From NCBI GenBank assembly GCA_963820525.1, contig CAWGAA010000001.1, positions 1,309,299 to 1,373,298 on the forward strand: DNA of 64,000 nt, given 5' to 3'. How positions within the stretch are numbered: the stretch's first letter is position 1; each line of letters begins with the position of its first letter. The DNA comes from an uncultured Spirochaetota bacterium. Lineage in GTDB: Bacteria > Spirochaetota > Spirochaetia > SZUA-6 > Fen-1364. Position numbers and translations under genes: made by a program. Below the pieces are notes generated by a model that had not been told where the DNA came from, did no database searches, and worked only from the letters and a program-made list of their open reading frames with translations. Below, in pieces: positions 9,764-59,622 of the stretch.

Positions 9764-9767
9764 CGAG

Positions 9768-39842: not shown

Positions 39843-39845
39843 GAG

Positions 39846-41357: not shown

Positions 41358-42562
41358 TGCCCGTGTACATGTGCCGCGTGGCGGATGGCAAAGGAAAGAT
41401 CGAGGAGTTTCTCCGGGAGGCCGCTTCCGAGGAACCGCTGGTGAGGGAGCTTTCGGCCCGAAACCTCTTCGTGCTCTCCATGAAGGAGCTGGCGCAGGGG
41501 GAGGCGGCGGGCAAGACTGGCAGGCGCTTTTCCCGCAAGGTAGTGGGCGAGCTTACGGACCTCTTGAGCCTGATGCTCGGCTCCGGGCTTTCCCTGAAGG
41601 ACTCCCTGGAAGTGGCGCAGTCGGTATCTTCCCGCGGACCGGGCAACGAGATTGTCACCCTTCTGCTGGAAAGGATCAGGAAAGGCTCCAGCTTCGCCGC
41701 GGCGCTGGAGACGACGGGCAACAGCTTTCCCCCGGTGTATCGCGGCATGGTGAAGATCGGAGAGCGGATCGGTTCCCTTGACCAGGTATTCGTCCGGCTC
41801 TGCTCCTACCTCTCGGACGAGAAAAAGCTTCGCGAGCGGTTCAGCGGGGCCCTCCTGTATCCGGCGATCGTCCTGTGCGTGGCCATGATGAGCGCCATCC
41901 TGGTCATCACGGTCCTTTTCCCCCGGATGCGGGAGATTTTTTCCCAACTGGGCCAGGGGATGTCCGCCAAGGTTGATTCACTCATGAGTTCCCTCACCGT
42001 GTCATTCATCACGGCAGGAGTCCTGCTCGCCCTGGGGATCGCGCTCCTGGTGTTTGTGTTTCGGGCGAGGAAGAAGGGAGGCCCGCTTGCGGTGCGCATT
42101 GACTCACTCTCCCTTCGCCTGCCGCTTCTTTCGACTTTTCTCATGCAGCGTGAGCTTCTCAATTTCTCCTTTGCCATGGAAACCCTCACCGCCGCGGGAG
42201 TGAGCGTCGAGGAGGCTCTCTCGGAAGGGGCCGGCGCCGTGGGCAACAATGCGCTGAAGGAGGATATCCTTTCCATCAAGGAAAAAGTCATGAAGGGGGA
42301 GCGACTGTCGGCCGCCTTCTCCAGCAGCACCGTCTTTCCCGCCCGTATCGCGCGGTGGGTGGGCATTGGCGAGAGGGTCGGGCACGTGGAGAAGGTGTTC
42401 GGCCAGCTTCGCGCGTACTATCAGCAGGAGGTGGAGAAATGGATAAACCGGCTCATGACGCTCATCGAACCGGCAATCATCGTAGCCCTTGGAGTTCTTA
42501 TCATCCTCTTCGTGGTGTTTTTCATCATCCCCATTTTCTCTCTCTACGGAAACATCCTGTAG
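41357..42562 (+). CDS. gspF: Inner-membrane platform protein (GspF/PilC family)
   Basis: Two GspF repeats and 3 TM helices. Typical C-terminus PIFSLYGNIL. Confidence 0.85.
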   Translation: MPVYMCRVADGKGKIEEFLREAASEEPLVRELSARNLFVLSMKELAQGEAAGKTGRRFSRKVVGELTDLLSLMLGSGLSLKDSLEVAQSVSSRGPGNEIVTLLLERIRKGSSFAAALETTGNSFPPVYRGMVKIGERIGSLDQVFVRLCSYLSDEKKLRERFSGALLYPAIVLCVAMMSAILVITVLFPRMREIFSQLGQGMSAKVDSLMSSLTVSFITAGVLLALGIALLVFVFRARKKGGPLAVRIDSLSLRLPLLSTFLMQRELLNFSFAMETLTAAGVSVEEALSEGAGAVGNNALKEDILSIKEKVMKGERLSAAFSSSTVFPARIARWVGIGERVGHVEKVFGQLRAYYQQEVEKWINRLMTLIEPAIIVALGVLIILFVVFFIIPIFSLYGNIL

Positions 42563-42987
42563 GAGAAGGGGAAGCGGGCTGGACCTTCATAGAGATCATG
42601 GCGGTCATCGCCATCATCCTCATCCTCATGAGCGCCGTGGGCTTCATGGCCTTCCGCTGGGTGGACAGGGCAAAGGTCGTGACCGCCAAAAGCCAGATCG
42701 AGACGCTGTCTCTTGCCCTCAACGCCTACGCTTTGGACTGCAAGCAGTTTCCGTCGCAGGAGCAGGGGCTCGACTCCCTGTTCACAAAGCCGCCCCTAGA
42801 GCCCGTTCCCGCGGGCTGGGCCGGTCCGTACGTTGAAAAGAAGGTGACCACGGACCCTTGGGGCCACCCCTACGAGTACACGGTGCCCGGCCCCAGCGGG
42901 CTGCCCTTCGGCATCCGCACCCTCGGGGCGGACAGCAAGGAAGGCGGGGAAGGAAACGACAAGGACATCTCTTCGTGGGAAAATTGA
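42439..42987 (+). CDS. gspG: Major pseudopilin, GspG-like. The mature part begins at ~42580 (G|WTFIEIMAVIAIILIL). The true start is uncertain; see findings.
   Basis: Strong similarity to GspG across the mature protein (hydrophobic N-terminal helix with Glu+5, ...KSQIETLSLALNAYALDCKQFPSQEQGLDSLF...DPWGHPYEY). The only canonical in-frame start with an RBS is ATG 42439 (AGGAGGTG 5 nt upstream). This gives a 47-aa leader that overlaps gspF. Confidence 0.6.
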   Translation: MDKPAHDAHRTGNHRSPWSSYHPLRGVFHHPHFLSLRKHPVGEGEAGWTFIEIMAVIAIILILMSAVGFMAFRWVDRAKVVTAKSQIETLSLALNAYALDCKQFPSQEQGLDSLFTKPPLEPVPAGWAGPYVEKKVTTDPWGHPYEYTVPGPSGLPFGIRTLGADSKEGGEGNDKDISSWEN

Positions 42988-43002
42988 GAGAAGAATGGGG
43001 CG

Positions 43003-43165
43003 CTAGCGGCGGCAGACGGCGCGCGGCGCCGCGCATGCTCGGGGGCGCCAGCGGACGGCGCGCGGCGCCGCGCATGCTCGGGGGCGGCGGACGGGTGGGT
43101 CGCGGCAAGCCGCCCGCGATGCCGAACGTGCCCGGGGGCGCCAGCGGACGGCGCGCCCGCGAGGG
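43003..43165 (+). repeat. 39-bp GC-rich tandem repeat (2 copies plus 1 partial) encoding the repeated leader segment GASGRRAAPRML of a minor pseudopilin
   Basis: Copies at ~43005-43044 and ~43046-43084 are nearly identical (…GCCAGCGGACGGCGCGCGGCGCCGCGCATGCTCGGGGG). A third degenerate copy lies at 43139-43165. In-frame ATGs at 43035, 43074 and 43119. Confidence 0.75.
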
Positions 43166-43349
43166 CGGCTACATCCTCCTCGATGTCCTGGTGGCGCTCT
43201 TCATAATCCTTGTCGGCTTCGCCGTTCTGGTGGGCAGCATCAGCCTGGCGGCGAGCATGACCGTGAAGCAGAACGCGCGCGTGCTGGCCCTCATCGCACA
43301 GAGGAACACGGATGCGAAAGAGCGGACGATCCTCTTCCAGCACAAGTAA
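43035..43349 (+). CDS. Minor pseudopilin (prepilin-type N-terminal domain G|YILLDVLVALFIILVGF); leader contains the tandem repeat
   Basis: The hydrophobic prepilin helix follows the ...REGG cleavage-site context. Alternative start at ATG 43119 gives a 17-aa leader MPNVPGGASGRRAREGG. Confidence 0.55.
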   Translation: MLGGASGRRAAPRMLGGGGRVGRGKPPAMPNVPGGASGRRAREGGYILLDVLVALFIILVGFAVLVGSISLAASMTVKQNARVLALIAQRNTDAKERTILFQHK

Positions 43350-43908
43350 ACACCAACAGGCGAAGCCGGCGACTTTGCCCGCCCCTTCGGGGCAGCCGCG
43401 AAAAGCAGCCACGGATGGTGAGTCCGGCTCCACGCTCCTGGAGGTCATGGTGGCCATCGGCATCATGTCCATCCTTGGGCTGGGGGCCTGGGGCGCCGTG
43501 TCCACCTCAATTCGGATGGCAGGTCGAATCAACGACAGGGTGCTGGAAAGCGTGCGCCTGCTCCAGCTTGACGACCGGCTTCGCGGGCTTGCCGGTCGCA
43601 TCCGCCCTCCCTATTGGGCATCGAAGCAATCCGTTGAGACTGAAGGGGGCACCCTGCGGGCGGCCTTCCTCGATGGAGACCCCGAAAAATCGATGAGCAT
43701 TTCCTTTGAGGACGGAGTCCTCTCCATCGATGACGGGGAATACTCAAGCCGATACTCGGATTTCAAGAGCGCCGAGTTTTCGCCCGCAGTAAACGACAGC
43801 AAAGTCACCTACGGCGTAACAGTGGATCTAAAAGCCAAGAGCGGAGACAAGATCTCCATAACTGCGCGCTTCGGCGGAACGCCGATAGGCAGCATGTCAG
43901 ATAAATGA
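43312..43908 (+). CDS. Minor pseudopilin (G|STLLEVMVAIGIMSIL, Glu+5) with a long predicted leader
   Basis: Canonical prepilin motif. ATG 43312 gives a 39-aa basic/Ser-rich leader. In-frame TTG 43375 would give an 18-aa leader. Confidence 0.6.
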   Translation: MRKSGRSSSSTSKHQQAKPATLPAPSGQPRKAATDGESGSTLLEVMVAIGIMSILGLGAWGAVSTSIRMAGRINDRVLESVRLLQLDDRLRGLAGRIRPPYWASKQSVETEGGTLRAAFLDGDPEKSMSISFEDGVLSIDDGEYSSRYSDFKSAEFSPAVNDSKVTYGVTVDLKAKSGDKISITARFGGTPIGSMSDK

Positions 43909-44921
43909 CGCGGCGCAAATCCCAGGGCGGTTCCACCTCGGTTACGGCGCTCATTCTCCTGGTCCTCCTGGCGGCGGTGGCCGGCGGGGGGATCATCGTC
44001 CTTCAATCCGCCCTGTCCTATGACGCAAAGAGCGTCCGCAATAACGAGCAGAAACTTCCCCTGCAAAAAGAAGCCCAGAGGGTGATAAAGGCGCTCTGTG
44101 ACGACACGACGCCGGAGGCGGATAGCCCGCTGGACCAAGTGTGGAGCGCAATCCGCATGCCGGAAACCGATGGCGTGACCATCAAGCTCCAGGACCTGTC
44201 CAGCAACCTCAACCCCAACTGGGTGCAGAAAAACATCCTGGCGAAAACCCATCTCGGAGACCTGCTGAAGCCCGGCATCACCCCGGACGTGCTCCAGCAG
44301 CGCAGGGAGGACAAGGGCTTCTCGGTGGACCTGGCCCTGGAGTACGGGGATCTGATAAAGGAAGATGCGATCCCCAAATACTTCACGGCGTACAGCTATG
44401 CGAACATCAACGTCACAGACGAGTTCGCCCTGCGGAAGCTCTATGCGATCAGGACCGGGGACGAGCCCGGCTCAGAGGTGTTCCACGGCCACGTGCAGGA
44501 GCTCCTGGCACAGAAGAAGATCCTCAAGCCAACCGAGCTTCGCCAGTTCCTCGGCATCGACTACGACACCCTGTACCCTATGATGAACGTTGAGCCCATC
44601 ATCAACGTCCACTTCATGGACCCCATGGTTCTGAACGAGCTCCTCTCCTATCCCGACTGGAAGGTGTCCCACCCGCGGGAAAAGGCCCAGATCGTCCTGG
44701 ACTCGCGGGACCGCTCGGAATTGACAGGGGAAGAGCTGCGGCGGATAATCGGAGTCGCGGAAGACAACAGGATTCTCCAGTACCTTGGCGTGATCACGTG
44801 GTTCTGGAAGATCACCGTCTCCCGAGAGACGGCGAGCCTGGAGCTCATCGTGGCCCGGCTTCCGTCCGAAGGCGAGAGCGCTCCGCGCTTTCTCATTACA
44901 GAAGAAAGGTTTTCGCCGTGA
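43905..44921 (+). CDS. GspK-like minor pseudopilin (N-terminal TM/pilin-like helix plus a large periplasmic domain)
   Basis: Size (~338 aa) and position after the pseudopilins. N-terminal hydrophobic helix GSTSVTALILLVLLAAVAGG. ATGA overlap with the upstream gene. Confidence 0.45.
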   Translation: MTRRKSQGGSTSVTALILLVLLAAVAGGGIIVLQSALSYDAKSVRNNEQKLPLQKEAQRVIKALCDDTTPEADSPLDQVWSAIRMPETDGVTIKLQDLSSNLNPNWVQKNILAKTHLGDLLKPGITPDVLQQRREDKGFSVDLALEYGDLIKEDAIPKYFTAYSYANINVTDEFALRKLYAIRTGDEPGSEVFHGHVQELLAQKKILKPTELRQFLGIDYDTLYPMMNVEPIINVHFMDPMVLNELLSYPDWKVSHPREKAQIVLDSRDRSELTGEELRRIIGVAEDNRILQYLGVITWFWKITVSRETASLELIVARLPSEGESAPRFLITEERFSP

Positions 44922-46075
44922 TCGTCCTGGGATATGCCAAGCAGAGCGGTGACGAGGTGCTCCTCCTGTCCATAGAGGACGGGCAGCCGCTTGCCGGCGC
45001 GCTCGCGCTCGATGGGTGCCTCATGTCCCGGCTCGACTTCGACGTTCAGATCCTGGAAATCCCCGTCGTTCCGGACAAGGAGGTGGAAGGCCTCATCCGC
45101 TACCGGCTTCGAAGCATCTATCCGGGAAACCCCAGCGAAACCGCCTTCGACTACCGGCTCCAGGCCAACGGCCATCAGAGCCGCGCCGTCGTCTTCATAT
45201 CCCAGAGATCGACTCTTGAGAAATACAAGAAGGCCGCCGAGCAGCGGCACCTTCTTCTCCCCTACTCCCTGACGGCGCCCCTGGCAAAAAGCGGCGCCGA
45301 CATGCGGGTCTGGTTCTGCCAGCGGGATTGGGCCGAGCTCAGCGTGTTTCGCGGTGGACTTGCCGTCTCCTCGCGCGTCCTCCAGAGAAACGAGGGAGAG
45401 CCGTTCGACATCGATGTAGCCGAAAGCGAACTGGACGCCGAGACAAAGGCTCTCCCCTGCCTGATCGTCGCCTCATCCGAGGAGATCCAGCGCCTCCAGG
45501 AGGAAATGGGAGACACCCAGGCGCGCGGCTTCACCTTGATCAGCTTCAAAAAGCTTCTTTCACAACAGAGAAAGGCCGAATGGCTCTTCAGCCCCCCGAA
45601 ACGGACGCCGTCATTTCTCAAGCCCGCAGTCAGGATGACTGCCCTGGCTGTCGCCGTGGCCGTCTTTGGGGTCCTTCTCTTCTTCAAGTACGTCGCATCC
45701 GTGGAGAGCCGCTACGAGGGGCTCAAGAAGCTCCACGCCTCCTTGGAAAAGGAGAGCGGGCGAACGCTCGCCATCCAGAAGGAAGTGGACGATCTGAGCT
45801 CCGAGCTTTCCAAGCTGCAGGCTGAAAAGCCGCAGGACCTCTACCTCTTCCTCTCCGAGCTTTCCTCGGTCCTGGGCGGCGAAGCCCAGATCCGAAGCAT
45901 GACCTTCCAGGGCGATGGTTTCCAGATAGAGGCCGTGGGGAGCAATCCCCTCAAGCTCATGGAGGGGTTCAGGAACCGTCCATCATTCGATAACGTGAAA
46001 CTCTCCCAGGTTGTGCCCGACGCGCGCACGGGCAAAGAGCGTTTCTCCTTCTCGGGGGCCTTCCATGCTCGCTAA
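44918..46075 (+). CDS. GspL/PilM-PilN-like assembly protein (cytoplasmic domain, single TM helix, periplasmic domain)
   Basis: GTG start overlaps the upstream stop (GTGA). Central TM helix AVRMTALAVAVAVFGVLLFF followed by a coiled-coil. Position in the operon. Confidence 0.5.
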   Translation: MIVLGYAKQSGDEVLLLSIEDGQPLAGALALDGCLMSRLDFDVQILEIPVVPDKEVEGLIRYRLRSIYPGNPSETAFDYRLQANGHQSRAVVFISQRSTLEKYKKAAEQRHLLLPYSLTAPLAKSGADMRVWFCQRDWAELSVFRGGLAVSSRVLQRNEGEPFDIDVAESELDAETKALPCLIVASSEEIQRLQEEMGDTQARGFTLISFKKLLSQQRKAEWLFSPPKRTPSFLKPAVRMTALAVAVAVFGVLLFFKYVASVESRYEGLKKLHASLEKESGRTLAIQKEVDDLSSELSKLQAEKPQDLYLFLSELSSVLGGEAQIRSMTFQGDGFQIEAVGSNPLKLMEGFRNRPSFDNVKLSQVVPDARTGKERFSFSGAFHAR

Positions 46076-46592
46076 AAGGGAGCGTCGGCTCCTCGTAGCC
46101 TTGGGAGTTGTGGTCGCGCTCTCGCTCCTCACCATTGCCTTGATCCTGGGCATGGAGCGTCTGGGAGCCGCACGAGTGAAAGCAGCCCAGTACGAGGCGC
46201 AGATCGCGAAGCTCTCGCGGTCCCTGCCCTCGGAATCCGATATCTCGGCGCTTCGGGAGAGCTTGAAGAAGGAGCTGGATGCCAGGAAGGCACGCTTCTA
46301 CTCTCCCGATCAGATGAACCCGTACTCGTTCGGGACGCTGATCAAGAAAGAGCTGACCTCCCACGGGATCACCGTTATCCGCTACCAGGTCATCGAGATC
46401 AGGGGCAAGAGCAGCCTGGAGTTCTCCGTGTCGGGAAACGTCAAATCACTGATCCTCTTCCTCCAGGACGTCTCACGGTCCGAGAAGTACTGGACCATCT
46501 CCTCTCTTACCCTCACTATGCGGGAAGGAACAGAAAAGGTGGATGCCGTATTCAGGATTGGCTATGAAGTCCTCGATAAAAAGAACAGCTGA
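46065..46592 (+). CDS. GspM/PilO-like protein (N-terminal TM anchor plus periplasmic domain)
   Basis: TM helix LLVALGVVVALSLLTIALIL followed by a coiled-coil and a C-terminal domain. Operon position. Confidence 0.45.
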   Translation: MLAKRERRLLVALGVVVALSLLTIALILGMERLGAARVKAAQYEAQIAKLSRSLPSESDISALRESLKKELDARKARFYSPDQMNPYSFGTLIKKELTSHGITVIRYQVIEIRGKSSLEFSVSGNVKSLILFLQDVSRSEKYWTISSLTLTMREGTEKVDAVFRIGYEVLDKKNS

Positions 46593-47714: not shown

Positions 47715-47993
47715 CCCCGACATTCAAAGCAGTGACAATTCTTCGATTGATTCTTCAAGTATTGAGCCGACGGGGGCGAAAGGCGATTTGATACTATAAT
47801 TATTTAGTCATAAGGGCATTGTCCAGTTTATTTCTTCGTTTAATATATTCTGAAAATCCATTCAATATGTCTTTCCTCAATATGTAGACAATAAGCATAG
47901 TAACTTCTATAATCATATCGTAGCAGTTGGTAGCATTGGTTTTAGATATAAGAGCTGAGACGAGGCAGAAGGTAAAAGTTGAACTATGAGATA

Positions 47994-48269
47994 ATGGCCC
48001 GCTTCGCGATCACTCTAAGAGAAAGCGCCGATACTATACTCGGATTGAGAACCGCGAATCGAGAAGAATCTTCGCCAAGAATACGGATCCTCAGAAGATT
48101 AAAAGGAATCGCCACTCGTCCGCCATACCAAAAGGAAATGCTCTTTATAAAAAGATGTTATGCTCAAAGTGACAGAAATGACTGGATAGCGCAGCCCAAA
48201 GTCGCTATTGATATGATCTCCTCGGTGCAGAGCAGGAAGCGACGAAGTACGTTTGTTGATAGAGGATGA
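47994..48269 (+). CDS. Small hypothetical protein in the AT-rich island leader (questionable)
   Basis: ORF of ~92 aa with island-like composition. No recognisable homology. Confidence 0.25.
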   Translation: MARFAITLRESADTILGLRTANREESSPRIRILRRLKGIATRPPYQKEMLFIKRCYAQSDRNDWIAQPKVAIDMISSVQSRKRRSTFVDRG

Positions 48270-49548
48270 TTTTGCTGTCGGTTCCGAATGTTTGGGCATG
48301 ATCTGTCTAAAGGAGGGGCCATTGGCGATTCGCAATACCAGAAGCAATCGAAGCCAAATCCCTCTGCATGAAAACAGCATACAGAATAGCTTGGCGTACA
48401 GACAACACCGCGGCCACGGCCAAAAGGGGCAGAAGACTTTCAGACTTACGCATTCACCCTTATTGCGACTCAATGCCATCTGTCCCTATTACACGATGTT
48501 CCCGCTAGAGTTTCCTCTTCTACAGCTTGCAATGGCGAAGAAAAATGAGTGGGTTCTGGATCCCTTTTGCGGTAGGGGTACTACCATTTTCGCGGCGCGG
48601 TTGCTTGGCCTTGGATGCGTCGGTATAGACAGTAATCCCCTTGCGGCCGCCATTGCTGCGGCAAAATTAGCAAAAACTAAAGCCGAAGCCGTTGTTGATT
48701 TGGCCTCCTCAATTATCGAGAAGACAAAGATGCCGGCTGAGATACCGGATGGGGATTTTTGGCGTCTTTGTTTTCACCCTAAGACATTACGCGAAATTTG
48801 CGTGCTTCGTGAACAATTATTGAGGAGATGCGTCACGCATGAAGAAATCGTATTGCGTACCCTCCTCTTGGGTATTCTCCATGGGCCGCTTCAAAAGGGG
48901 AAACCAACCTATTTGTCAAATCAGATGCCACGCACCTATGCGACAAAACCCGCGTCCGCCATCCGTTTCTGGAAAAGAAAAGGTCTGGTAGCCCCTGCTC
49001 ATGTCGATGTCATAGACGCGATATCCAGACGAGCGGCGCATTTGCTAGTCGTGCAACCTCCACTATCCAGGGGCTCTGTATACTTAGGGGATTCAAGAGA
49101 TGCCCTTCGGCTTCTTCTCCATGAGCGCAAGTTCGGATGGGTTATAACGTCACCGCCTTACTTCGGGATGCGCACTTATCGGCCCGATCAGTGGCTACGA
49201 AACTGGTTCATTGGAGGCAAAGATCATGTGGATTACGGCCAGGAAGGTCAGCTCGCACATCACGCCGAACGCTTCGCCGCCGAGCTGGCAAGCGTGTGGA
49301 AGGCGATAGCGCCGCATTGCATGGCGGGAGCTCGGCTAATCGTCCGTTTCGGTTACCTACCGAGTATTCCCATCAATGCACGGAATCTTCTCAGCTACTC
49401 GTTGAAGTTGGCGAACGTTGGATGGCGTGCATACCGGTGGCTGGATGCAGGATCAGCAAGCAACGGAAATAGACAATCCGAGCAGTTCGGTTTTAATACT
49501 GGCTCCGCTGCTAGGGAATTGGATGTACACGCGCGTCTGGAGGCATAA
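48253..49548 (+). CDS. DNA methyltransferase (amino-MTase; AdoMet motif I ...WVLDPFCGRGTT... precedes catalytic motif IV SPPY)
   Basis: Matches the FP..L...LI..G..VLDPFxGxGTT AdoMet-binding signature (residues ~83-110). SPPYFG motif at ~residue 300 (ITSPPYFGMRTY). Start is uncertain: ATG 48253, TTG 48322 with an AAGGAGGGG RBS, or ATG 48496. Confidence 0.75.
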   Translation: MLIEDDFAVGSECLGMICLKEGPLAIRNTRSNRSQIPLHENSIQNSLAYRQHRGHGQKGQKTFRLTHSPLLRLNAICPYYTMFPLEFPLLQLAMAKKNEWVLDPFCGRGTTIFAARLLGLGCVGIDSNPLAAAIAAAKLAKTKAEAVVDLASSIIEKTKMPAEIPDGDFWRLCFHPKTLREICVLREQLLRRCVTHEEIVLRTLLLGILHGPLQKGKPTYLSNQMPRTYATKPASAIRFWKRKGLVAPAHVDVIDAISRRAAHLLVVQPPLSRGSVYLGDSRDALRLLLHERKFGWVITSPPYFGMRTYRPDQWLRNWFIGGKDHVDYGQEGQLAHHAERFAAELASVWKAIAPHCMAGARLIVRFGYLPSIPINARNLLSYSLKLANVGWRAYRWLDAGSASNGNRQSEQFGFNTGSAARELDVHARLEA

Positions 49549-49550
49549 TT

Positions 49551-50714
49551 ATGTTCGACCCGGATGAGTTGCCTGAACTGAAGCAGACTATAAGAATTGC
49601 AACCATTAGGGACCGGCACCTATTGGATGATTTACGTAAAGAAGTTCGAGCTCTTGCATCGGATGTCCGAGCCATCAAACACAGATCGACGACATCTGTA
49701 TCTTTGGTCGCAAGCGACGGGGGAAACAACAAACTTGTATTTGATCCATTCCATGTACAACTCGTACGTGTTGTGGATTCATACGGTGAGCAACTCTGTC
49801 TTGATGCGGTAACCCCCACAACGGATACGGATTTTCTTAGCCATGCTCAATTCCTTAATGACGGATCCCCTCGCACCGCCCTGGGCCACATGATGGCAGA
49901 TTTCAAAGTAGACCCCCCTTTGCTCAGCCAGCTCAGCCACATGATTCCTGAGGGCCAAAAAACTCGTGATCATCCTGATGAAGTATCTCCTTCCTGGGTT
50001 CTGGTTTACCGCGACCTTTGCGAATGGGCAGCACTTTATGAAAGGATCTGCTACCGGAATTTCGCAACCGACACTCTACTCGTTCGAGACGGGCTTCTGA
50101 GGAGCAAGCTCTTTCGGGGCAACCACTTCATCACCTACCGTAAGCGTATTGAGGAGGCGATCGAGAGAATCCGCCAAGAGACGCGGCGAAAGGTATTCCT
50201 GGTTGGCGTCGCGAAGCATAGCAAGGTTCTGGAACGGTATAATTTGACGATTGCCTTGGAAGGAACGTTTCCACCAGGAGCACCACGATTCGTAAAGATA
50301 CCTCGCGCTATCGAATCCAAAGCCTACGTGTGGCCAGAGTACGCTCGCGGTGCTGAGTATGAATCTGAAGAAGGTGAAGCACCAAAGTTTGTCGCAGGTG
50401 ATATGTACTTTGTCAGATTTGGAGAGCGCAGCGGTGACCCTTTATGGACTGTAGATATCCTGAGCAGTCAGTCTTCTTCTTCGGCTGAGATTTTCGGTTA
50501 CCTACTGGCCGACGCTATGGATGGCTTCCCCGTACCTTTTTATCCCAGATGTCTGCAAAAGGCTCATGAGTTTGCTCAAATAGTCGATTTCGACCTGGAT
50601 ATTTTGCAGGACGAGGTAGTCGATGCGGTGCGCGGCTTATTGAGTGACGAGGAAATCCCCGCCCTAGAAGGCCTTCGCCTTCAAGGTGATGTTTCCGCAA
50701 GGAGGTATGGATGA
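49551..50714 (+). CDS. NurA-like nuclease candidate (387 aa), translationally coupled to the MTase
   Basis: GGAGG RBS lies 8 nt before the ATG, which is 2 nt after the MTase stop. N-terminal acidic motif LVASDGGNNKL resembles the NurA catalytic D-G-S region. Genomic pairing with a HerA-like ATPase. The assignment is tentative. Confidence 0.45.
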   Translation: MFDPDELPELKQTIRIATIRDRHLLDDLRKEVRALASDVRAIKHRSTTSVSLVASDGGNNKLVFDPFHVQLVRVVDSYGEQLCLDAVTPTTDTDFLSHAQFLNDGSPRTALGHMMADFKVDPPLLSQLSHMIPEGQKTRDHPDEVSPSWVLVYRDLCEWAALYERICYRNFATDTLLVRDGLLRSKLFRGNHFITYRKRIEEAIERIRQETRRKVFLVGVAKHSKVLERYNLTIALEGTFPPGAPRFVKIPRAIESKAYVWPEYARGAEYESEEGEAPKFVAGDMYFVRFGERSGDPLWTVDILSSQSSSSAEIFGYLLADAMDGFPVPFYPRCLQKAHEFAQIVDFDLDILQDEVVDAVRGLLSDEEIPALEGLRLQGDVSARRYG

Positions 50715-50826
50715 AGCTTTTTACTGAGAGACGACGGTAGGAATTTTCCGCGGATTTAGCGAGGGCGGGCTGGAGTTCCATGCGGACCTCGTACTGCCCT
50801 ATCGCAATGAGTTTCAACGGGCTCCA

Positions 50827-52842
50827 ATGCACGGACAATTTCTCGTCGTACAACTCGAAGACGAAGATGAGGCCGTATTGGGACGCATTACTTCAATTTT
50901 CTCGGAGGGAAGACTAGCTTCCTCGGCGGGGGAAGATTACGGCATCCGGGCAGTCTCAGAAGAGCGGCCGATCCCGGAAGACCTACGCGAGCAATACCTG
51001 AAGTATCGAGTGAATATACGGGTTCTAGGAGTGATCCGTAAGGTCGACGGGAAGCTTGTATTCGCTGCGTCTCATCGGCGCTTACCACATGTGGGTAGCA
51101 AGGTCGCGTTTCTTACCGACGAAGTGCTTCGTGAAGTAGCTGGGCATAATATCATGAACGCTGCCGAAATAGGATATTTCGCACTCGGGGAGTTTATCTA
51201 TTCCGCGGATGATTCTAGACTTGCTCATGAACCCTGGATGCAGATCAGAAGCCCTGCCGTAATCCCAAAGTTCCGCGTACTTGACCTCGTGGCGCGAAGG
51301 ACATTTGTTTTTGCGCGCGCAGGTTTTGGGAAATCAAATCTCGTCAAACTTTTATTCGCTGATCTGTATAAAAACACTCCAACGGTAGAAAAGCGAGGCG
51401 GCAGACAAGTCGCAGTGGGGACTGTAATCTTCGATCCGGAAGGAGAGTATTTTTGGCCGGACGATAAGAACCGGCCGGGCCTTTGTGATGTTCCTGAGCT
51501 GCAGGATAAAATTGTCGTCTTCACTCCTAAGCGAAGTAAAAGTCCTTATTACCAGTCCTTCGTTGCTGGGGATATCAAGCTGGATATCAGAAGGCTCCGT
51601 CCAGGCGATGTCATTTCAATAGCTCTATCGCCGGAAAAACAGGATCAACAGAACGTAAGAAAACTCAAGGGGATGAACGACACCGATTGGCACCAGCTTG
51701 TAGACCTGGTGCATAAAGAGGGCAACGCCGCAGATGGAAACACGGTCCGGCAATTGCTACGTCTTGAAGAAGGGCAAGATGCCGAGATGGTAGCAGCGCG
51801 GGCAAATATGACGACAATCGTTAGGATGCTCCACGATCCCAGCAGCCAAATGATGGATATGCTCTTGACGGCGCTGCGTGATGGAAGGCTTTGTATAATC
51901 GATGTTTCTCAGATGCGCGGAGCTCCCGCACTAGTACTTTCCGGCTTGATCTTGAGGAGGATTTTCGACCATAACCAAGAAGAGTTCACGGAAGCGGAAC
52001 CACAGACAATCCCGGTAATCGCGGTTGTCGAAGAGGCCCAAACCGTTCTCGGGAGCAGTGGAAGCTCGGGAGAAGGCCCTTACATTTCATGGGTGAAGGA
52101 GGGAAGAAAGTACGACTTGGGAGCGGTTCTTGTCACACAGCAACCTGGATCGATCTCAAGCGAAATACTCAGCCAAGGCGATAATTGGTTTGCGTTCCAT
52201 CTGCTTTCAACCGGCGATCTCAGAGCTATAAAAAATGCAAATGCACATTTCAGTGACGACATCCTATCGTCTCTTCTAAATGAACCCATCCCAGGACACG
52301 GGGTTTTTTGGAGCAGTGTTGGGGGAAAAAGCTACCCCATCCCTATCCGCGTCCTATCTTTCGAAGGCCAATACAAGGCACTGGATCTGAAATACTCAAT
52401 GCCGACGGCTAATACGACCGCAAAGATTCTTCAACAGCGTTTTGCCGGCGCCCTTGCCGCAGCACTTGATTCAGCGCCACATGACACTTCAGTTACTGGT
52501 AAGGAAGAGCAGAGCCATGCCCCAGATGGAAGAGAACCAGAGCCTGACGAGAAACAAGACGCGTTGGAAACATATGCGCGTGCCGCCATGGAAAATCTGA
52601 AATCAGATCAACGGTTCCTCGATGCCTTACGGCAGTCCGGAAAGCCGTGGCGTGCTGTACAAGAGCAATTGAAGAACGGTCTTCCAGATGTTCTTTCCGA
52701 TCGAGGCGAAATCGCTCATCGGCTGGTAGTAAGGGTCATGACTGAACTCTTCGGTGAACAAAATGTCTCCTGGAAGACTGAGAAGCGGCCTTCCAAGAGT
52801 AGGCCGGGTGATTCAACGACTTGGATCGTGATTATCTCATAG
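50827..52842 (+). CDS. HerA-like ATPase (HerA/DUF87, FtsK-HerA superfamily)
   Basis: Walker A FARAGFGKSN. HerA-specific segments LCIIDVSQMRGAPALVLSGLILRRIF, Walker B IAVVEEAQTVLG, and EGRKYDLGAVLVTQQPGSISSEILSQGDNWFAFHL. Confidence 0.8.
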   Translation: MHGQFLVVQLEDEDEAVLGRITSIFSEGRLASSAGEDYGIRAVSEERPIPEDLREQYLKYRVNIRVLGVIRKVDGKLVFAASHRRLPHVGSKVAFLTDEVLREVAGHNIMNAAEIGYFALGEFIYSADDSRLAHEPWMQIRSPAVIPKFRVLDLVARRTFVFARAGFGKSNLVKLLFADLYKNTPTVEKRGGRQVAVGTVIFDPEGEYFWPDDKNRPGLCDVPELQDKIVVFTPKRSKSPYYQSFVAGDIKLDIRRLRPGDVISIALSPEKQDQQNVRKLKGMNDTDWHQLVDLVHKEGNAADGNTVRQLLRLEEGQDAEMVAARANMTTIVRMLHDPSSQMMDMLLTALRDGRLCIIDVSQMRGAPALVLSGLILRRIFDHNQEEFTEAEPQTIPVIAVVEEAQTVLGSSGSSGEGPYISWVKEGRKYDLGAVLVTQQPGSISSEILSQGDNWFAFHLLSTGDLRAIKNANAHFSDDILSSLLNEPIPGHGVFWSSVGGKSYPIPIRVLSFEGQYKALDLKYSMPTANTTAKILQQRFAGALAAALDSAPHDTSVTGKEEQSHAPDGREPEPDEKQDALETYARAAMENLKSDQRFLDALRQSGKPWRAVQEQLKNGLPDVLSDRGEIAHRLVVRVMTELFGEQNVSWKTEKRPSKSRPGDSTTWIVIIS

Positions 52843-53452
52843 CTTTTATTTGACGTTCATCAAGGTTCAGCCCGGCGGAAGCGTTTCCGGGCTGAGCTCG
52901 CCCGTGGGGGTCGCCCCTTTCGGGGCTCCAGGGCGGGCCGCGCGGCGTCGGCTAATAGGGCCCATTAACCGGACGCCGCGCTATCGCACAAACCGGAACT
53001 TCGCCCTTCGGTGCGGCCGTCAGCTACAATACGGCTCGGCCCTCCTTGGCCTCGCCGCGGCAGGTCCGTTCCCGCCAGCGCCACTCATGCGGCTGGTGCT
53101 AGGCCGCGTCGGCCGCCCCTTCAAGGGAGGCTGAACACGTTGCAGCCTCCTTCCGCCGGGCCTGGTGGCCGTGACGGTCCGTAAACCGATACTGCCTTTT
53201 GTATGCGGCTGGCGCGCCGACCGCACACATGAGCCGATCGTGCGGAGGGCTTTCTGTAGCGAAGAACGCGGGCAAGGACGCCCGCGAGCGATGAACGTAC
53301 AGAAACCTCGTCCCCCCATGAGCGTCCCCCTCCCTGGACGACCATTGGATACCATAAAGAGGGGGAAGCCGAGAGGGTGGGTTCCATGGAGAGGGAGCGG
53401 CGGGGGGACGAGGGAAGCCCTCCGCGCGGGGTTGTGGGTTCCTTTGACGGTG

Positions 53453-54142: not shown

Positions 54143-57100
54143 CTAGTCGCCGGTGTTGGCCGTAATCGTAACGGGCGTTCTCTCGTAAAGCGCTGTTTGC
54201 ACAGTATCTCCGAGCTCATTGACATTGGCGTTACTCATTCGAATACAACCGTATGTATTATCATTGATATTGTTCGCAGCCTGTGGAGACGTCACGGATC
54301 CGGCTACACCATAGGCATTCCCACGCTCGTCATATCCCCCGCCGTGGACTGCATAGCCCCAGTCGGTTGTCGTACCACTCGGGACCCAATTGCCTTCGGG
54401 ATTCTGGACCTGGGTTGTAACGGTCTGATGAGCGTCCGTAATTATTTCAGTCTGGCCATAAGCGTCGTTGTTTGGATGTCTCACTTCTGTAACGTTCCAC
54501 GTTCCATTGGGAAATCGTTGAGGATAGTAGTTCTGCCCGCTTGGAGTTGTTGTCGCAGCGGGGGTCGCCATAGGTTGCGGATTGTTTGTGGCTGTATATG
54601 TGGCGACCTTTATGGTCGAAATCGCACCCGTATGAGAGGTGACATCAAGATAAACGCCCATTCTCTGATTTGCTCTGTCAAACACCAAACGCAGTCTGTC
54701 CAACCCCGTGGGATCCACGAACGCCAGTGGGTTATTCCAGCAGTACGCATACCAGTTCGCCCCATCGCGAGCTGGGTCCTCGGTTATGAATCTGCCTAGT
54801 TGTGGGTCATACCATCTGGCGTTGGAGTAATACAGGCCGGTGTCAGGATCAAGTTCCTTGCCCGTGTACATGCCGTCGAAGTCTAGTATCCCATTACTTC
54901 TCGCAATCTTTCCGAACGCTTCATACTCTGCATCCCACACAATCTGCCCCGAGATATTGGTAACGACATTGGTCGTTCCTTCGTGGTCGGTGTGATGCCA
55001 ATATGTCGTGCTGGTAGTCTCTGACGTGCGCACCTCGGCCCAGATCTGCCCTAGGGCTTCAATATACTTCCGCTGCACCTTTCCGTCTTCAGTCCAGAGC
55101 AAGTCGCCGGAAAGATCGTACTGATAGTAGTAAACGGTAGAACCCTTTGTCGTCTGAACCCTCAGGTCCCTGATATCGTACGAGTAACGGGCCACAGCCT
55201 TTAGCCCGGTGGTCCCTTTAGTCGAGTGACCCACCTGCACAAGACGGTTCTTCAGGTCGTACGTGTATTGCCAGAGCTCGCCGTTGTCTTGGTCCCAGGC
55301 GGATCGATTGGCAGCCGAGTCCCATCTCCCCTGGTTTCCGCGCGAGATCAGGTTCCCGTTCGCGTCGTAGTTGAATGACCAGCTTCCTGCCTGCTTAATT
55401 CTGCTTGAGCCGGCGTAATAGGTGTACACCTTGTCTTCTGAATAGCTGCCCTTGATATCGTTTTCCGCAAGCCTGTTGCCAAGGGCATCATATGTCCAAG
55501 AAGTCATATGTCCATTAACGTTGAACCAAACCTGTACCAGCTTCAAGGGGGTGTCGACCACCGTCGAATTATCCTCGGCGTGATTGCTTTCATCTCTTTC
55601 ATCCCAGGTCATGTGGACCTTCAAGAACTGAGCCTGATGAGAGCTTTCAAGTTGCAGCGTTACTCCACCTTCGTCCTGCATCCAAGTGGTGTCGGTGAGC
55701 TTTGTCCAGCTGCCGGATGTTCCGTCATTGCTCGCATAAAGCTCTACAGTTCTGGGAGAAATCCTGGAGCTGACGCCCGCAAGCCTTACCTTGTTGATGT
55801 TTCGAGCAGTCTGGAAATCGACCCCAACACTGGAAGCGTGGTAGTCCAGTTTGACAGGAGCGGATGGGTCACTGAAATCGAGGGGATTCCTTCCCGCCAC
55901 ATCTCGTTCCCGGCTTCCGTAGTTTATGCCGCTTATGTCTTTGGTGTTTACTTCAAACTCGCCGGCTTCCTGAGTCAAAACCAGCCGGTTGAGCTTGTCA
56001 TAGCCGTAAGAGCTGTAATGTCCATCCTTCACCTGGGTTACCAGGTTTCCTTCATTGTCCCATGCCAGGCTCCGAGCTGATTTTCCTTCAATATGCCAGT
56101 CATACTCTTCAAGCGATCCGGTGATGGGATCCCAATTCTTCGTGCGCCGCGAGCCGTCGGACGCCGAAAGGCTGGTGAGCCTTCCCATGAAGTTATACTG
56201 CCCGGCTGAGGCGTAGCCAGGAATGTCGGTGAGTTGTCCAAGGCCATTATAAAGACAGCTCACGACACTTCCATCAGGGTAGGTGATGCTTGTCGGGTTA
56301 TGGGCGTCGTCATAAGTATAGGAGACGCTGAGATTCTTTGAACCGACAGAAGTAGTGTAGCTGTTGATCAGGTCGTATGGATCCGGGACATAAATGGAGC
56401 TTGCCTGGTTTATCGAAGTCTGAACGCTCCCATCGGTTGCAGACTTCAGAGATCCCGCCGCGTCATAAGTCCAGGATTCATTGAGAGACCGGCTTCCGTT
56501 TGAGAAGCTCTTGGAAGTGATGCGTCCCGCATTGTCGTAGCCGTTTGTGATTGTGGTCTGGTTGGGGTCAGTTTGTTGGATCACAAGACCACGTTCATCG
56601 TAGGCGTAGCTCCAAACTTGACCCAGGTTGTTCTGTTCATAGGTAAGCTCTCCGTATTGGTCATACCCACGTACCCACACCTGGTTTCCATTCTGTGGAT
56701 TCTCGAAAACGCTCTGTACGGGTTCGTCCCAGACATCGTAGACGGTTCGTGTGACATTGCTGTAAGGGTCTGTGCTGCTGGCGGGCTTGTTCTGGCTATT
56801 GAACACTACCGTGGTGGTGTAGCCCATGGCGTCGCTTGTGCTTGTGGCGCGGCCCAGCTTATCCAGGATCAAGTGCTGCTCTGTTCTATCCGGGAAATAG
56901 GTATCGGTAAGGCGGCTCATGCCGTCATACGTCTTTGAGGTCACAAGGCCGGAGCTTGATTCGGGGTGTGCCGTGTTCAAGTTCGACACGACGATTTCCT
57001 TAACCGGATTTCCTTTAGCGTCGTACCCCCAAGCAGTGACTAGTGGCCCCGTTCCATCGGCACCGCTTACGCTTTGGCTGGTCTTTCTATTGCGAGAATC

Positions 57101-57992
57101 ATAGGTCCAAACCGTGACTTTCCCGGCAGGATCGATCTGGCTTGTGGCATTGCCGCGAAGATCGTAGGAGATCTGGACCTTTCCGCGCGGCCGTCCTGCC
57201 ACGGGCGGCAAGTCCGCTAACACGAGGCGGTCGAGGTCGTTATACAGGTAATTAAGGGTGAAGTTGTCCGAAACCGAGGGGTTGGGATTGGATCTTGGAT
57301 CCTTCATCTGGATCTTTCGATCCCGGATATCGTAGCGGTAGCGGACGGTTGCGCCGGTTGGATCGGTTTCGGTGAGCACTTGATTGCGGCTGGAGTAGCT
57401 TTTAAAGCTCAGTCCTTCTACTCCATCGACGTCCATGCTGTTATTCTTGATCGCTTCAACAACAAGCGGATCGGCATGTTGAATGAGGTTTCCCGAAGCG
57501 TCGTACCAGCTCCATTCCTCGCGTGTCCCAACAAGCTTCTTGATCGCTCTTCCCGCTGTGTCATAGGTAGATTCCACTGTTCGATAGTTGCCGGAGTGCC
57601 CTGTCTGTTGCCTGATGGCCTGCCCAGCATCGTCGTAGAGCGTGATATCTGTGGGTGTGGCGGTTGTCAGAGTAACATCGGGGAGGACAGTTGACGGCGT
57701 GGGCGGACTTTGCCAAACATCCACTGGAGGATGATCTACCTCTCTGGGCTTTCCGAATGGGCTATATCTGGTAACCGTCTTTTGCCCCAACGGATCGACA
57801 ACCGCGACAGTCTCTCCCAGGCCATTGTAATATGTCTGGGTAACGGCGTTAATTCCCCGCGGATCCACGATCTTGGTTTGTGTAGCGTCCTTCCAGGTGG
57901 TCCATTCCTGGGTGATTATCCCGCGCTCGTCCGTAGTGGTTTTAAGATTCTGAGAGTCGTCGTACACCGTGCTGATTCCGGCGCCGTCGGGG
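54143..57992 (-). CDS. Rhs/YD-repeat polymorphic toxin, C-terminal ~1280-aa portion. Contains YD repeats, the RHS core (…YDPQLGRFITEDP…FVDPTGL) and a C-terminal YkuD/L,D-transpeptidase-like (Tlde1-like) toxin domain. Separated from its N-terminal part by the IS insertion.
   Basis: Numerous YDxxGR(L)...PDG repeats. RHS-associated core motif. The C-terminal ~170 aa carry an L,D-transpeptidase signature (GYAVHGGG ... YGCIRMSNANVNELGDTVQ...TPVTI). The long ORF reported through 59362 is an antisense read-through of the IS. Confidence 0.8.
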
Positions 57993-59622
57993 TACGATAT
58001 GCGGGATATAACCGAATCTTGTGGGTGGACAGGGAATAAAAAGAGCGTATCCTTCGGTGAAACCAAGCACAACCAAGGAATCACCGATTGGAGGACACGC
58101 TCATGGACGAAACTATCACATCCGGGCTGAAAATCGAAGGGGGCAATTCCCAGGAATTGTTGGAGCAGTTGGTCCGCTCTGGCGCGCGCAGTGCCCTGCA
58201 GGCGGCGCTGGAGGAAGAAGTCAATCAGTTCCTGCAAAAGTTCACGCACTTGCGAGACGAGAAAGGGCACCGGAAGGCGGTGCGCAACGGCTACATGCCC
58301 CCGCGGACCATCCTCAGCGGGGTCGGGCCACTGCCGATCCGTCAACCGCGCGTGGACGATCGCGGGCTTCGCGATATCGAAGGGGGCGAACGATTCTCCA
58401 GCAGGATCCTGCCGCGCTTCATGCGCAAGATGCCGAGCCTGGAGGGGTTGATCCCGGTGCTGTACCTGAAGGGCATCTCCACGGGGGACTTCAGCGAAGC
58501 TTTGGCTGCGATCCTGGGCGAAGGGGCCAAGGGGCTGTCGGCCTCGACGATCACGCGGCTGAAGGAGGGGTGGCTGGAGGAGCACACGCAGTGGAGCAGC
58601 CGGGGCCTGGAGGACAAGGAGTACGTGTACCTGTGGGCGGACGGCATCTACGTCAACGTGCGTCTGGATGACGAACGCAGTTGTCTGCTGGTGCTCATCG
58701 GGGCCACACGGGAGGGCAAGAAGGAGCTGGTGGCCGTCAGCGACGGCTATCGCGAGAGTAAGGCCAGCTGGCGGGAGATGCTGCTGGACCTGAAGGCCCG
58801 GGGGCTGAGAATGGCAGGAAAACTGGTCATTGGGGATGGGGCGCTGGGATTCTGGGCAGCGGCCGAGGAGGTGTTCCCGGGGATGAAGCACCAACGCTGC
58901 TGGGTGCACAAGACCGCCAACGTTCTGGACAAGCTGCCCAAGGGGGTTCAGTCGAAGGCCAAGGCGATGCTTCACGCCATGTATCAGGCCGAGACGAAGG
59001 AGGCGGCACTGAAGGCGTATCGTTTGTTCATCGGCTGCTTTAGGGACAAGTACCCCAAGGCCGTGGAATGCCTGGAGAAGGACGAGCAGGCCCTTTTCAC
59101 GTTCTACGAGTTTCCCGCGGCGCACTGGCTTCACATACGAACGACCAACCCCATCGAGTCCACGTTCGCGACGGTGAGGCTTCGCACGGCGAAGACCAAG
59201 GGGTGCGGATCGCGGGCGGCCACCCTGTCGATGGTGTTCAAGCTCTGCCGGGAGGCGGAGAAGAGCTGGCGGGGTCTGGACGGGGCAAAGTGGATCCCGA
59301 TGGTGCTGGAGGGCAAGCGTTTCATCGACGGAGAGCTCAAGGAGGACGTCGCGTAGCGGCATCCGTCAGCCACCCGGGGCTGGGAAGATCGGCGGCGAAC
59401 AGGATGGCTGCAAATCGTCGTGAGGATGTTCGACGAGTCATCGACTGAAAAATCGTGCGTCGTGGTGGGCCTACAACGCATTTGCGAAGGCCAGTTGGTA
59501 TCTGTACACCCCCTCTACGGCGCCCGGTCTCGAGGAAAGGAGGGCATAGGGGTCAACAGCAGTTTCGAAATCATCGTTGGATACGCTCGCAATCCTGATC
59601 CACAAGAATTGACAATATCCCA
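57993..59622 (+). mobile_element. IS256-family insertion sequence (~1630 bp) with imperfect ~26-bp terminal inverted repeats and an 8-9-bp target-site duplication (A)CGATATGC
   Basis: IRL GGGATATAACCGAATCTTGTGGGTGGACAG. IRR (reverse complement) GGGATATTGTCAATTCTTGTGGATCAGGAT. TSD at 57985-57992 and 59623-59630. Contains one transposase gene. Confidence 0.85.
58088..59356 (+). CDS. IS256-family (Mutator-like) transposase
   Basis: Collinear IS256 transposase signatures (LYLKGISTGDF, YLWADGIYVNVR, LIGATREGKKELVAV, IGDGALGFWAAAEEVFP, QRCWVHKTANVL). Confidence 0.9.
   Translation: MEDTLMDETITSGLKIEGGNSQELLEQLVRSGARSALQAALEEEVNQFLQKFTHLRDEKGHRKAVRNGYMPPRTILSGVGPLPIRQPRVDDRGLRDIEGGERFSSRILPRFMRKMPSLEGLIPVLYLKGISTGDFSEALAAILGEGAKGLSASTITRLKEGWLEEHTQWSSRGLEDKEYVYLWADGIYVNVRLDDERSCLLVLIGATREGKKELVAVSDGYRESKASWREMLLDLKARGLRMAGKLVIGDGALGFWAAAEEVFPGMKHQRCWVHKTANVLDKLPKGVQSKAKAMLHAMYQAETKEAALKAYRLFIGCFRDKYPKAVECLEKDEQALFTFYEFPAAHWLHIRTTNPIESTFATVRLRTAKTKGCGSRAATLSMVFKLCREAEKSWRGLDGAKWIPMVLEGKRFIDGELKEDVA

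Follow-up and report, generated by a model that had tools for sequence, protein, structure and literature searches.

A window of 64,000 nucleotides (nt) from the genome of an uncultured Spirochaetota bacterium (assembly GCA_963820525.1, contig CAWGAA010000001.1, positions 1,309,299 to 1,373,298 of the forward strand) contains, at window positions 48253-52842, a cassette of three co-oriented open reading frames (ORFs) on the + strand that encode a DNA methylase, a NurA-type nuclease, and a HerA-type ATPase. The cassette is probably (at roughly 60%) a methylation-marked defense system of the Tdp-like, restriction-modification-like kind, built from three translationally coupled genes. By analogy with TdpAB and HerA-NurA, the ATPase would form a hexameric translocase on double-stranded DNA bearing a dimer of the NurA-fold nuclease, and the two proteins together would use ATP to thread DNA and degrade it. 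Host DNA would be marked by the amino-methyltransferase, probably an enzyme of the N4-cytosine type, and on self DNA this mark would block loading, translocation, or cutting, in the same way as the phosphorothioate that TdpC makes is reported to act on TdpAB. This scheme presumes a complex of nuclease and ATPase, DNA as its substrate, and, above all, methylation as the signal that is read. The features of the cassette are as follows, in window coordinates.

47885-47913, + strand: promoter-like site (TAGACA-17-TATAAT) in the AT-rich stretch 5' of the cassette, with 11 of 12 consensus positions
48253-49548, + strand: amino-DNA-methyltransferase of the PF01555 type, an ORF of 431 amino acids (aa), identified by family matches and by motifs I and IV
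49538-49542, + strand: GGAGG ribosome-binding site of the nuclease gene, read from the sequence within the 3' end of the methylase gene, eight bases before the ATG
49551-50714, + strand: TdpB/NurA-fold nuclease of 387 aa, identified by predicted structure and profile comparison
49716-49718 (D56), 50022-50024 (E158), 50088-50090 (D180), 50454-50456 (D302), and 50565-50567 (H339): candidate catalytic residues of the nuclease
50711-50740, + strand: ancestral 5' end of the ATPase gene, with an ATG that overlaps the nuclease stop codon (ATGA, 50711-50714), AGGAGG at 50700-50705, and a TAG stop codon at 50738-50740
50728-50826, + strand: conserved N-terminal segment of the ATPase, ETTVGIFRGFSEGGLEFHADLVLPYRNEFQRAP, 33 residues, in frame with the ORF at 50827, out of frame with the ATG at 50711, and without a start codon of its own
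50827-52842, + strand: TdpA/HerA-type ATPase ORF as called, 671 aa, identified by family, PDB, and profile matches
about 52390-52839 (residues ~520-671), + strand: C-terminal extension of the ATPase, not present in TdpA, consisting of an acidic linker and then a domain of ~95 aa from about 52560

The methylase matches PF01555 (expect value (E) 1.3e-9), the PADLOC model MTase_II (E 1.6e-17), and phage methylase families, and carries motif I as DPFCGRG (48559-48579) and motif IV as TSPPY (49147-49161). In an alignment of 30 sequences, TSPPY and FxGxG are invariant and the stretch between both motifs is highly conserved. The protein is in fact conserved from end to end, including the region between motifs I and IV in which target recognition is expected, which suggests a single fixed or very similar target throughout the family. 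As a form of motif IV, TSPPY is characteristic of N4-cytosine enzymes, the PDB matches include N4-cytosine methyltransferases, and the UniRef name of the Calderihabitans homolog reads "site-specific DNA-methyltransferase" (an incomplete name that ends at "(c"). Given the invariant TSPPY, the enzyme is probably of the N4-cytosine type. The start of the gene is uncertain: alignments with homologs begin at about residue 25-70 of the 431-aa ORF, and a conserved block (LRLNxxCPYYTMFP) lies 5' of ATG 48496, the start chosen by one gene caller, so that ATG 48298 or TTG 48253 is the likelier start. At the other end of the gene, the stop codon (TAA, 49546-49548) is followed by "tt" and then by the nuclease ATG at 49551. 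The initial annotation, made from the sequence alone, had listed the three co-oriented ORFs, the methylase with its FxGxG and SPPY motifs, and the coupling of methylase and nuclease across a 2-nt gap with a GGAGG site, all of which can be read directly (the coupling at 49538-49551).

The nuclease escaped identification by sequence alone. Its match to the Pfam NurA family (PF09376) is below the gathering threshold (E 0.18; 11.7 bits versus a cut-off of 21), PADLOC, PHROGs, and NCBIfam returned nothing useful, and a phmmer search of the PDB gave no match, so that structure prediction was needed. Structure comparison of the predicted model places TdpB first (8wet_G; score 18.6, with 277 residues aligned), followed by the NurA of S. 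solfataricus (10.7), the NurA of D. radiodurans (8.8), TM1739 (8.6), the NurA of T. kodakarensis (8.4), and Argonaute PIWI domains (about 6-7). The family profile likewise finds TdpB in the PDB (E 0.0012), and hhalign aligns the two at 91% probability (E 1.1e-6). Alignment together with seven TdpB-family proteins shows D56, R154, E158, W159, and D302 to be invariant and D180-G181 and H339 to be nearly so, which gives a conserved set D-E-D-D(-H/D); D56, E158, D180, and D302 are retained in all related loci that cover the residue in question. The predicted TdpB-type fold and the retained catalytic residues together indicate that the 387-aa protein is, as modeled, a NurA-fold nuclease of the TdpB kind and that it is probably active. 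Its earlier description as NurA-like is therefore upheld by the fold and the conserved D-E-D-D set, but not by the Pfam NurA search.

The ATPase was correctly assigned to the HerA type at the outset: it matches PF01935/DUF87 (E 1.1e-17), several PADLOC HerA models (E near 1e-19), NCBIfam HerA models, and part of the HAS-barrel, and it contains Walker A as GFGKS (51322-51336) and Walker B as VVEEAQ (52024-52041). Its best match in the PDB is TdpA (E 2.3e-18 with the single sequence and 2.5e-21 with a profile), which outranks both the S. solfataricus HerA and the SIR2- and DUF4297-associated HerA proteins. The hhalign alignment with TdpA (99.1% probability, E 9.4e-19) extends over 410 columns and ends at TdpA residue 585, among the last residues of that protein. 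Invariant in all loci are the lysine and serine of Walker A, the two glutamates of Walker B, the EGRKYD arginine (a candidate arginine finger), and the first glutamine of TQQPG (a candidate sensor). The family continues for ~150 residues past the end of TdpA, and this extension is conserved. The AlphaFold2 model of the full-length ATPase is poor (predicted local distance difference test (pLDDT) 49, predicted template-modeling score 0.29); Foldseek ranks TdpA first on this model, which is weak support, and the template-modeling scores are meaningless. Only the C-terminal domain is modeled with confidence (pLDDT 80-90), as a helical domain that ends in a beta-hairpin, and no significant relative of it was found by PDB sequence search or in Pfam at a relaxed threshold.

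A published account describes tdpABC as a third phosphorothioate-based restriction-modification system, present in extremophiles, in which tdpC alone makes the mark (PMC12914056, citing An et al., Nat Chem Biol 2025). The PDB entries of the Tdp system are 8wet, 8wfd, and 8y1k, and 21 Tdp loci (L090-L110, JGI/ENA metagenome contigs) were fetched with a 197-residue TdpA fragment rebuilt from a HMMER alignment; family members in these loci go down to ~40% identity. One locus (L090, 4667-8597) is identical to the PDB Tdp sequences and encodes TdpC (344 aa; SGGKDS as PP-loop motif and cysteines in a DndC-like pattern), TdpB (375 aa), and TdpA (586 aa), separated by gaps of a few bases. The order TdpC-TdpB-TdpA is found in all 19 Tdp loci with upstream sequence, a methylase of the window type occurs in none of them, and a tblastn search with the TdpC of L090 found no TdpC in the window or in loci L001-L089. 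An and colleagues reportedly found in 2025 that unmodified DNA is degraded by a TdpA hexamer that carries a TdpB dimer and translocates on the DNA, and that phosphorothioate on self DNA inhibits this activity.

The window ATPase is a distant homolog of TdpA, which is its closest match by sequence and by profile, and the nuclease is structurally closest to TdpB, has the D/E/D/D(H) residues in common with it, and is likewise encoded immediately upstream of the ATPase. Both systems have the order modification gene, nuclease, ATPase with near-zero spacing (in the window, the 2-nt gap and the ATGA overlap), and the implied logic would also be shared, with modification as the self mark and a motor-driven nuclease as the restriction activity. 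Where Tdp has the 344-aa DndC-like TdpC, however, the window cassette has the PF01555 amino-methyltransferase, which thus fills the position of the Tdp modification enzyme; no locus mixes both. The families are also distant (~16-20% identity, with a nuclease profile alignment of only 130 columns), the window-family ATPases carry the extra C-terminal residues, about 16% of the window-family loci are without a modification gene, and the window family occurs mostly outside thermophiles, archaea included, whereas Tdp belongs to extreme thermophiles. Judged by these sequence relationships, the cassette is a sister family of the TdpAB module.

The compact-operon HerA systems SIR2-HerA (Nezha) and DUF4297-HerA (Hailibu) also combine a HerA-family ATPase with an effector, and PADLOC and NCBIfam anti-phage HerA models match the window ATPase. 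The effector here is a NurA-fold nuclease, however, SIR2 and DUF4297 were not found in the three proteins, the NCBIfam HerA_antiphage model gives 57.9 bits on the window ATPase versus an equivalog cut-off of 800, and those systems are without a modification gene. Restriction-modification systems of type I, type III, and the CglI-like kind resemble the cassette in joining a methylase, an NTP-driven motor, and a nuclease; they differ in that their motor is a superfamily 2 helicase rather than a HerA/FtsK-class ring translocase and their nuclease is PD-(D/E)XK or HNH rather than RNase-H-like. Among the components of MADS (mad1-8), only a generic ATPase match to mad8 (E 9e-11) was obtained, and no other mad component was found among the three proteins. 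The initial annotation regarded the combination of methylase, NurA, and HerA as undescribed. No description of such a methylase-based defense system was found in the literature (NurA goes unmentioned in two comparative-genomics studies of HerA/FtsK "capture" systems), but the kind is not undescribed: the layout itself is known, with phosphorothioation, from TdpABC (2025), and an operon of ICEth1 with the same gene types was studied in 2017.

The three-gene arrangement is conserved far beyond the Spirochaetota. A scan with exact peptide patterns of one genome per species (185,579 species representatives) gave 80 loci for analysis, from at least 15 bacterial phyla and from archaea (Methanoperedens, ANME-2, Methanomethylovorans, Thermoplasmata, and Methanomassiliicoccaceae). 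Cultured carriers include Methylacidiphilum fumariolicum SolV, Elizabethkingia, Sphingobacterium, Pedobacter, Streptomyces, Actinomadura, Spirillospora, and Thermovorax. Homologs of the nuclease fall into more than 3,382 clusters at 90% identity, of which the best 120, drawn from very different phyla, are 67-100% identical; clustering at 50% leaves only 399 representatives, which indicates a compact family. Wherever the contig permits, the nuclease and ATPase genes of the 80 loci are adjacent. The methylase lies upstream of the pair in 58 loci and downstream of the ATPase in three; two further loci have methylase and nuclease on a contig that ends past the nuclease, and 17 have only nuclease and ATPase (five of them at contig edges). 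The methylase is thus adjacent in 63 of about 75 informative loci (84%), in very distant lineages. Intact trios are present, for example, in L089, in L009, and in Sphingobacterium spiritivorum ATCC 33861. The catalytic and ATPase motifs are kept in all loci, and identity to the window covaries closely between nuclease and ATPase from locus to locus (rho 0.92).

The cassette has spread horizontally. Its proteins are 60-85% identical across Bipolaricaulota, Planctomycetota, Bacillota, Bacteroidota, Actinomycetota, Methanoperedens, Thermoplasmata, and other groups, while each genome has unrelated genes on either side, often with ordinary metabolic roles. The nearest relative (locus L089; JGI 3300062532 contig Ga0599235_0005949, 74-5568) has an intact ATPase of 707 aa that is 91% identical to that of the window, and nucleotide homology between the two loci (83%) is confined to 48447-52846, which indicates that the mobile unit is the bare three-gene cassette. 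L089 adjoins genes for a DnaG/Toprim primase, ParA, HTH, and NYN proteins, and these neighbors suggest a plasmid or other mobile element. Other neighbors belong to defense systems. In nine Bacteroidota loci, a gene for the Septu ATPase PtuA (best E 1.9e-299) lies directly downstream of the ATPase gene on the same strand (at ~9300-11050 in loci among L047, L050-L055, L060, L061, and L064, from Elizabethkingia, Sphingobacterium, Pedobacter, Mucilaginibacter, and Flavobacterium). In a gammaproteobacterial genome (L008), AbiE, Fic, DUF4917, and an XhoI-type restriction-modification system adjoin the nuclease-ATPase pair, and elsewhere the neighbors include Schlafen-type and SNF2 helicases, GmrSD, Uma2, and PIN.

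Searches of mobile DNA were largely negative. No homolog of the nuclease was found on 72,556 plasmids (TdpA gave a single weak match there, in Deferribacter), and none of the nuclease or the methylase in 50,697 cultured phage genomes. A search of 2.9 million viral contigs gave only two, near-identical, matches (L111, 3411-5476, and L112; IMG/VR UViG_3300036965_000134 and UViG_3300036947_000272). Both contigs are phage-like, with YqaJ, RecT, SSB, and DnaC-like genes, and both encode an intact methylase of the family that is 61% identical to that of the window, together with a 272-aa ORF whose residues 1-193 are 81% identical to the nuclease; an ATPase is missing. The pattern would fit a phage that has borrowed the protective mark, although it is a single case; it may reflect self-methylation by the phage, or the nuclease piece may be a decoy.

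Several observations weigh against a defense system that reads methylation. A reader domain for methylated bases was not found in the three proteins, and the C-terminal domain of the ATPase is without detectable relatives; the candidate readers are that domain, the channel of the ATPase, and the methylase acting as a recognition subunit. PADLOC, which recognized the methylase and the ATPase in the profile check proposed with the initial annotation, has no model for the nuclease. The cassette is rare (at least 89 matches among the species representatives, a lower bound because exact peptide patterns were used), the ATPase gene of the window copy is frameshifted, and an ICEth1 operon of similar gene content has been linked to DNA donation rather than defense (PMC5365140). 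The methylase also appears to be dispensable. At least 12 of the roughly 75 informative loci, mostly from Actinomycetota, lack a family methylase in the 6 kb upstream and the ~3.8 kb downstream of a nuclease-ATPase pair with intact motifs, which argues against a strict restriction-modification logic. Complete genomes with only nuclease and ATPase include OZ242382.1, Actinomadura fulvescens, and Murinocardiopsis flavida. In L072 a methylase pseudogene with three stop codons lies next to intact partners, and only a methylase remnant is left in L027; such loci would not be expected to persist if a nuclease without its methylase were lethal. Decay has reached the other side as well: an IS1-like transposase gene splits the ATPase gene in L006, L007, and L020 (~9150-12750; Planctomycetota metagenome-assembled genomes) while methylase and nuclease are intact, and stop codons or truncations affect the nuclease or ATPase in L081, L082, and L086, in addition to the frameshift in the window. 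Loss of the methylase with the nuclease kept is about as common as the reverse, which would not be predicted for a strictly toxic restriction enzyme, and the methylase covaries only moderately with either partner (rho 0.54-0.59; 0.59 with the nuclease). Decoupled restriction and modification modules are documented for Dnd systems. Two expectations of the initial annotation are thereby qualified: the three genes stay together as a unit in many phyla and in archaea, although not in every locus, and the restriction-modification-type scheme gains from the defense neighbors and from relatives (TdpA and TdpB) that form the restriction half of a modification-based system, although the methylase is not obligatory. 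In an alternative account, the nuclease-ATPase pair would be a defense or DNA-surveillance nuclease that does not read methylation and might act on free ends or on replicating or injected DNA, with the methylase as accessory cargo (for protection against another restriction system, for epigenetic regulation, or as a modulator). In its favor, the pair is universal while the methylase can be missing, has been repositioned in three loci, and covaries less tightly, and SIR2-HerA and DUF4297-HerA defend without a modification gene. This account is nevertheless rather unlikely, since the methylase adjoins the pair in most informative loci from distant lineages, is translationally coupled to it, and is kept despite a change in gene order. 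The phage-like contigs, moreover, have retained the methylase in particular, and the nearest solved relative belongs to a modification-based restriction system (PMC12914056).

The operon on ICEth1 bears on a different alternative, in which the cassette would be the DNA-processing or export machinery of a mobile element. In Thermus thermophilus HB27, TTC1877-TTC1880 encode Tth111II, a 377-aa NurA-like protein, the 568-aa hexameric HerA/FtsK ATPase TdtA, and a 410-aa PF01555 methylase, which are co-transcribed (PMC5365140); the accessions of TTC1878-1880 are AAS82220-AAS82222. Donor cells need both the nuclease and TdtA for "transjugation", and knock-outs of these genes reduce or abolish DNA donation, which is the reported function of the operon (Blesa et al., PLoS Genet 2017, PMC5365140). 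Compared by its published description only, this operon has the same three gene types as the window cassette, overlapping or nearly so, on a horizontally acquired element; its order of nuclease, ATPase, and methylase recurs in three loci of the window family, and the position of L089 beside DnaG-type primase and ParA genes also fits a mobile element. The differences are considerable, however. The type IIG enzyme Tth111II stands in front of the ICEth1 genes, TdtA has 568 aa versus ~710 aa with the extra C-terminal domain in the window ATPase family, and ICEth1 has an integrase and 47-bp direct repeats, whereas the window has no integrase among the annotated neighbors of the cassette, no transfer RNA gene in its 64 kb, and no convincing direct (attachment) repeats flanking the cassette. 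Most loci, furthermore, lie between ordinary chromosomal genes, the nuclease is absent from the plasmids searched, and a defense module that degrades DNA could have produced the Thermus phenotype as a by-product, so that an export role is quite improbable. None of ten distant family representatives that were looked up came from Thermus. A housekeeping NurA-HerA module for end resection or repair, as in archaea and Deinococcus, with an unrelated methylase alongside, is scarcely plausible. The likeness to HerA-NurA (PDB 2ygk, 4d2i, 7f6d, and 9x1l) is real in the RNase-H-like NurA fold and in a HerA with HAS-barrel and RecA-like core, and a hexamer-plus-dimer architecture would be expected for the window pair. 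The window nuclease, however, falls below the Pfam NurA threshold, neither mre11 nor rad50 was found near the cassette in the window, the family is sporadic, horizontally transferred, and linked to a methylase, and the window copy is foreign in composition to the upstream genome; decay of the family by insertion sequences, stop codons, and a frameshift in several genomes also argues against a housekeeping role.

A more specific form of the methylation-marked defense reading is put forward tentatively, and could well prove wrong. A HerA-class ring translocase, alone or with the methylase as recognition subunit, may read base methylation (probably N4-methylcytosine in a fixed motif) while it loads on or threads DNA, and may switch the NurA-fold nuclease on or off in response. 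Such an architecture would be unrelated to restriction types I-IV and would be the horizontally spread methylation counterpart of phosphorothioate sensing by TdpAB.

The copy in the window is itself damaged or misassembled in the ATPase gene, which the initial annotation had listed as a 671-aa ATPase. The ATPase genes of all related loci start at an ATG that overlaps the nuclease stop codon (ATGA), and the relatives have a conserved 39-residue N-terminus (MKLFxRxTTVGIFRGFSEGGLEFHADLVLPYRNEFQRAP) that is absent from the called ORF. All of the 119 best homologs are 703-731 aa long, and the Pfam HAS-barrel match on the 671-aa ORF is without the first 25 model positions. A DNA alignment with six homologous loci places a 1-nt deletion between 50724 and 50725, at codon 6, and the frame from ATG 50711 consequently ends after nine codons (MKLFTERRR, then stop). 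Relative to the other loci, the 112 nt between 50714 and 50827 are therefore coding rather than intergenic, and the window copy is, by its sequence, a pseudogene, an N-terminally truncated gene, or the product of an assembly error. An independent short-read contig with an identical methylase (L113) ends ~50 nt before the site and so cannot decide between mutation and error. A programmed frameshift was rejected, as the deletion is present in no relative.

The surroundings of the cassette in the window are mixed. Guanine-plus-cytosine (GC) content drops from 0.60-0.66 to ~0.50 at 47 kb and stays low until the end of the window, so that the cassette lies at a compositional boundary and not, as the initial annotation had it, on a low-GC island of 4.6 kb. 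The promoter-like site at 47885-47913 is weak evidence, since the number of such sites in the region does not exceed that in shuffled sequence. On the 5' side are a TPR protein and a type II secretion or type IV pilus-like cluster (37674-46592, + strand) in the high-GC part, which ends just before the cassette and contains a secretin, a GspE-type ATPase, GspF, and three unannotated ORFs (43905-46592). On the 3' side, two large RHS/YD-repeat toxin genes (54143-59362 and 59515-63990, both on the - strand) share the low-GC stretch with the cassette; a YkuD-like domain lies at the C-terminus of the first, and the initial ~440 residues of that ORF do not look like protein, so that translation probably begins further in. 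An imperfect 28-nt inverted repeat (47968-47995 and 52831-52858, 75% complementary) brackets the cassette almost exactly, with its second arm overlapping the ATPase stop codon. It was considered as a mobile-element end and set aside as possibly due to chance. Homology to the nearest relative starts inside the methylase gene.

The family is widespread but rare, and unusually conserved. If the methylase does provide the self mark, motor-nuclease pairs of the TdpAB type would work with different DNA modifications: sulfur in the backbone for thermophiles, methylated bases for a far broader set of bacteria and archaea. HerA-type ring translocases would then be the basis of a modular class of restriction systems. 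Current defense-system annotation misses this family, as PADLOC 2.0 is without a model for its nuclease, and the Thermus "transjugation" operon would deserve a second look. The cultured carriers make the hypothesis directly testable.

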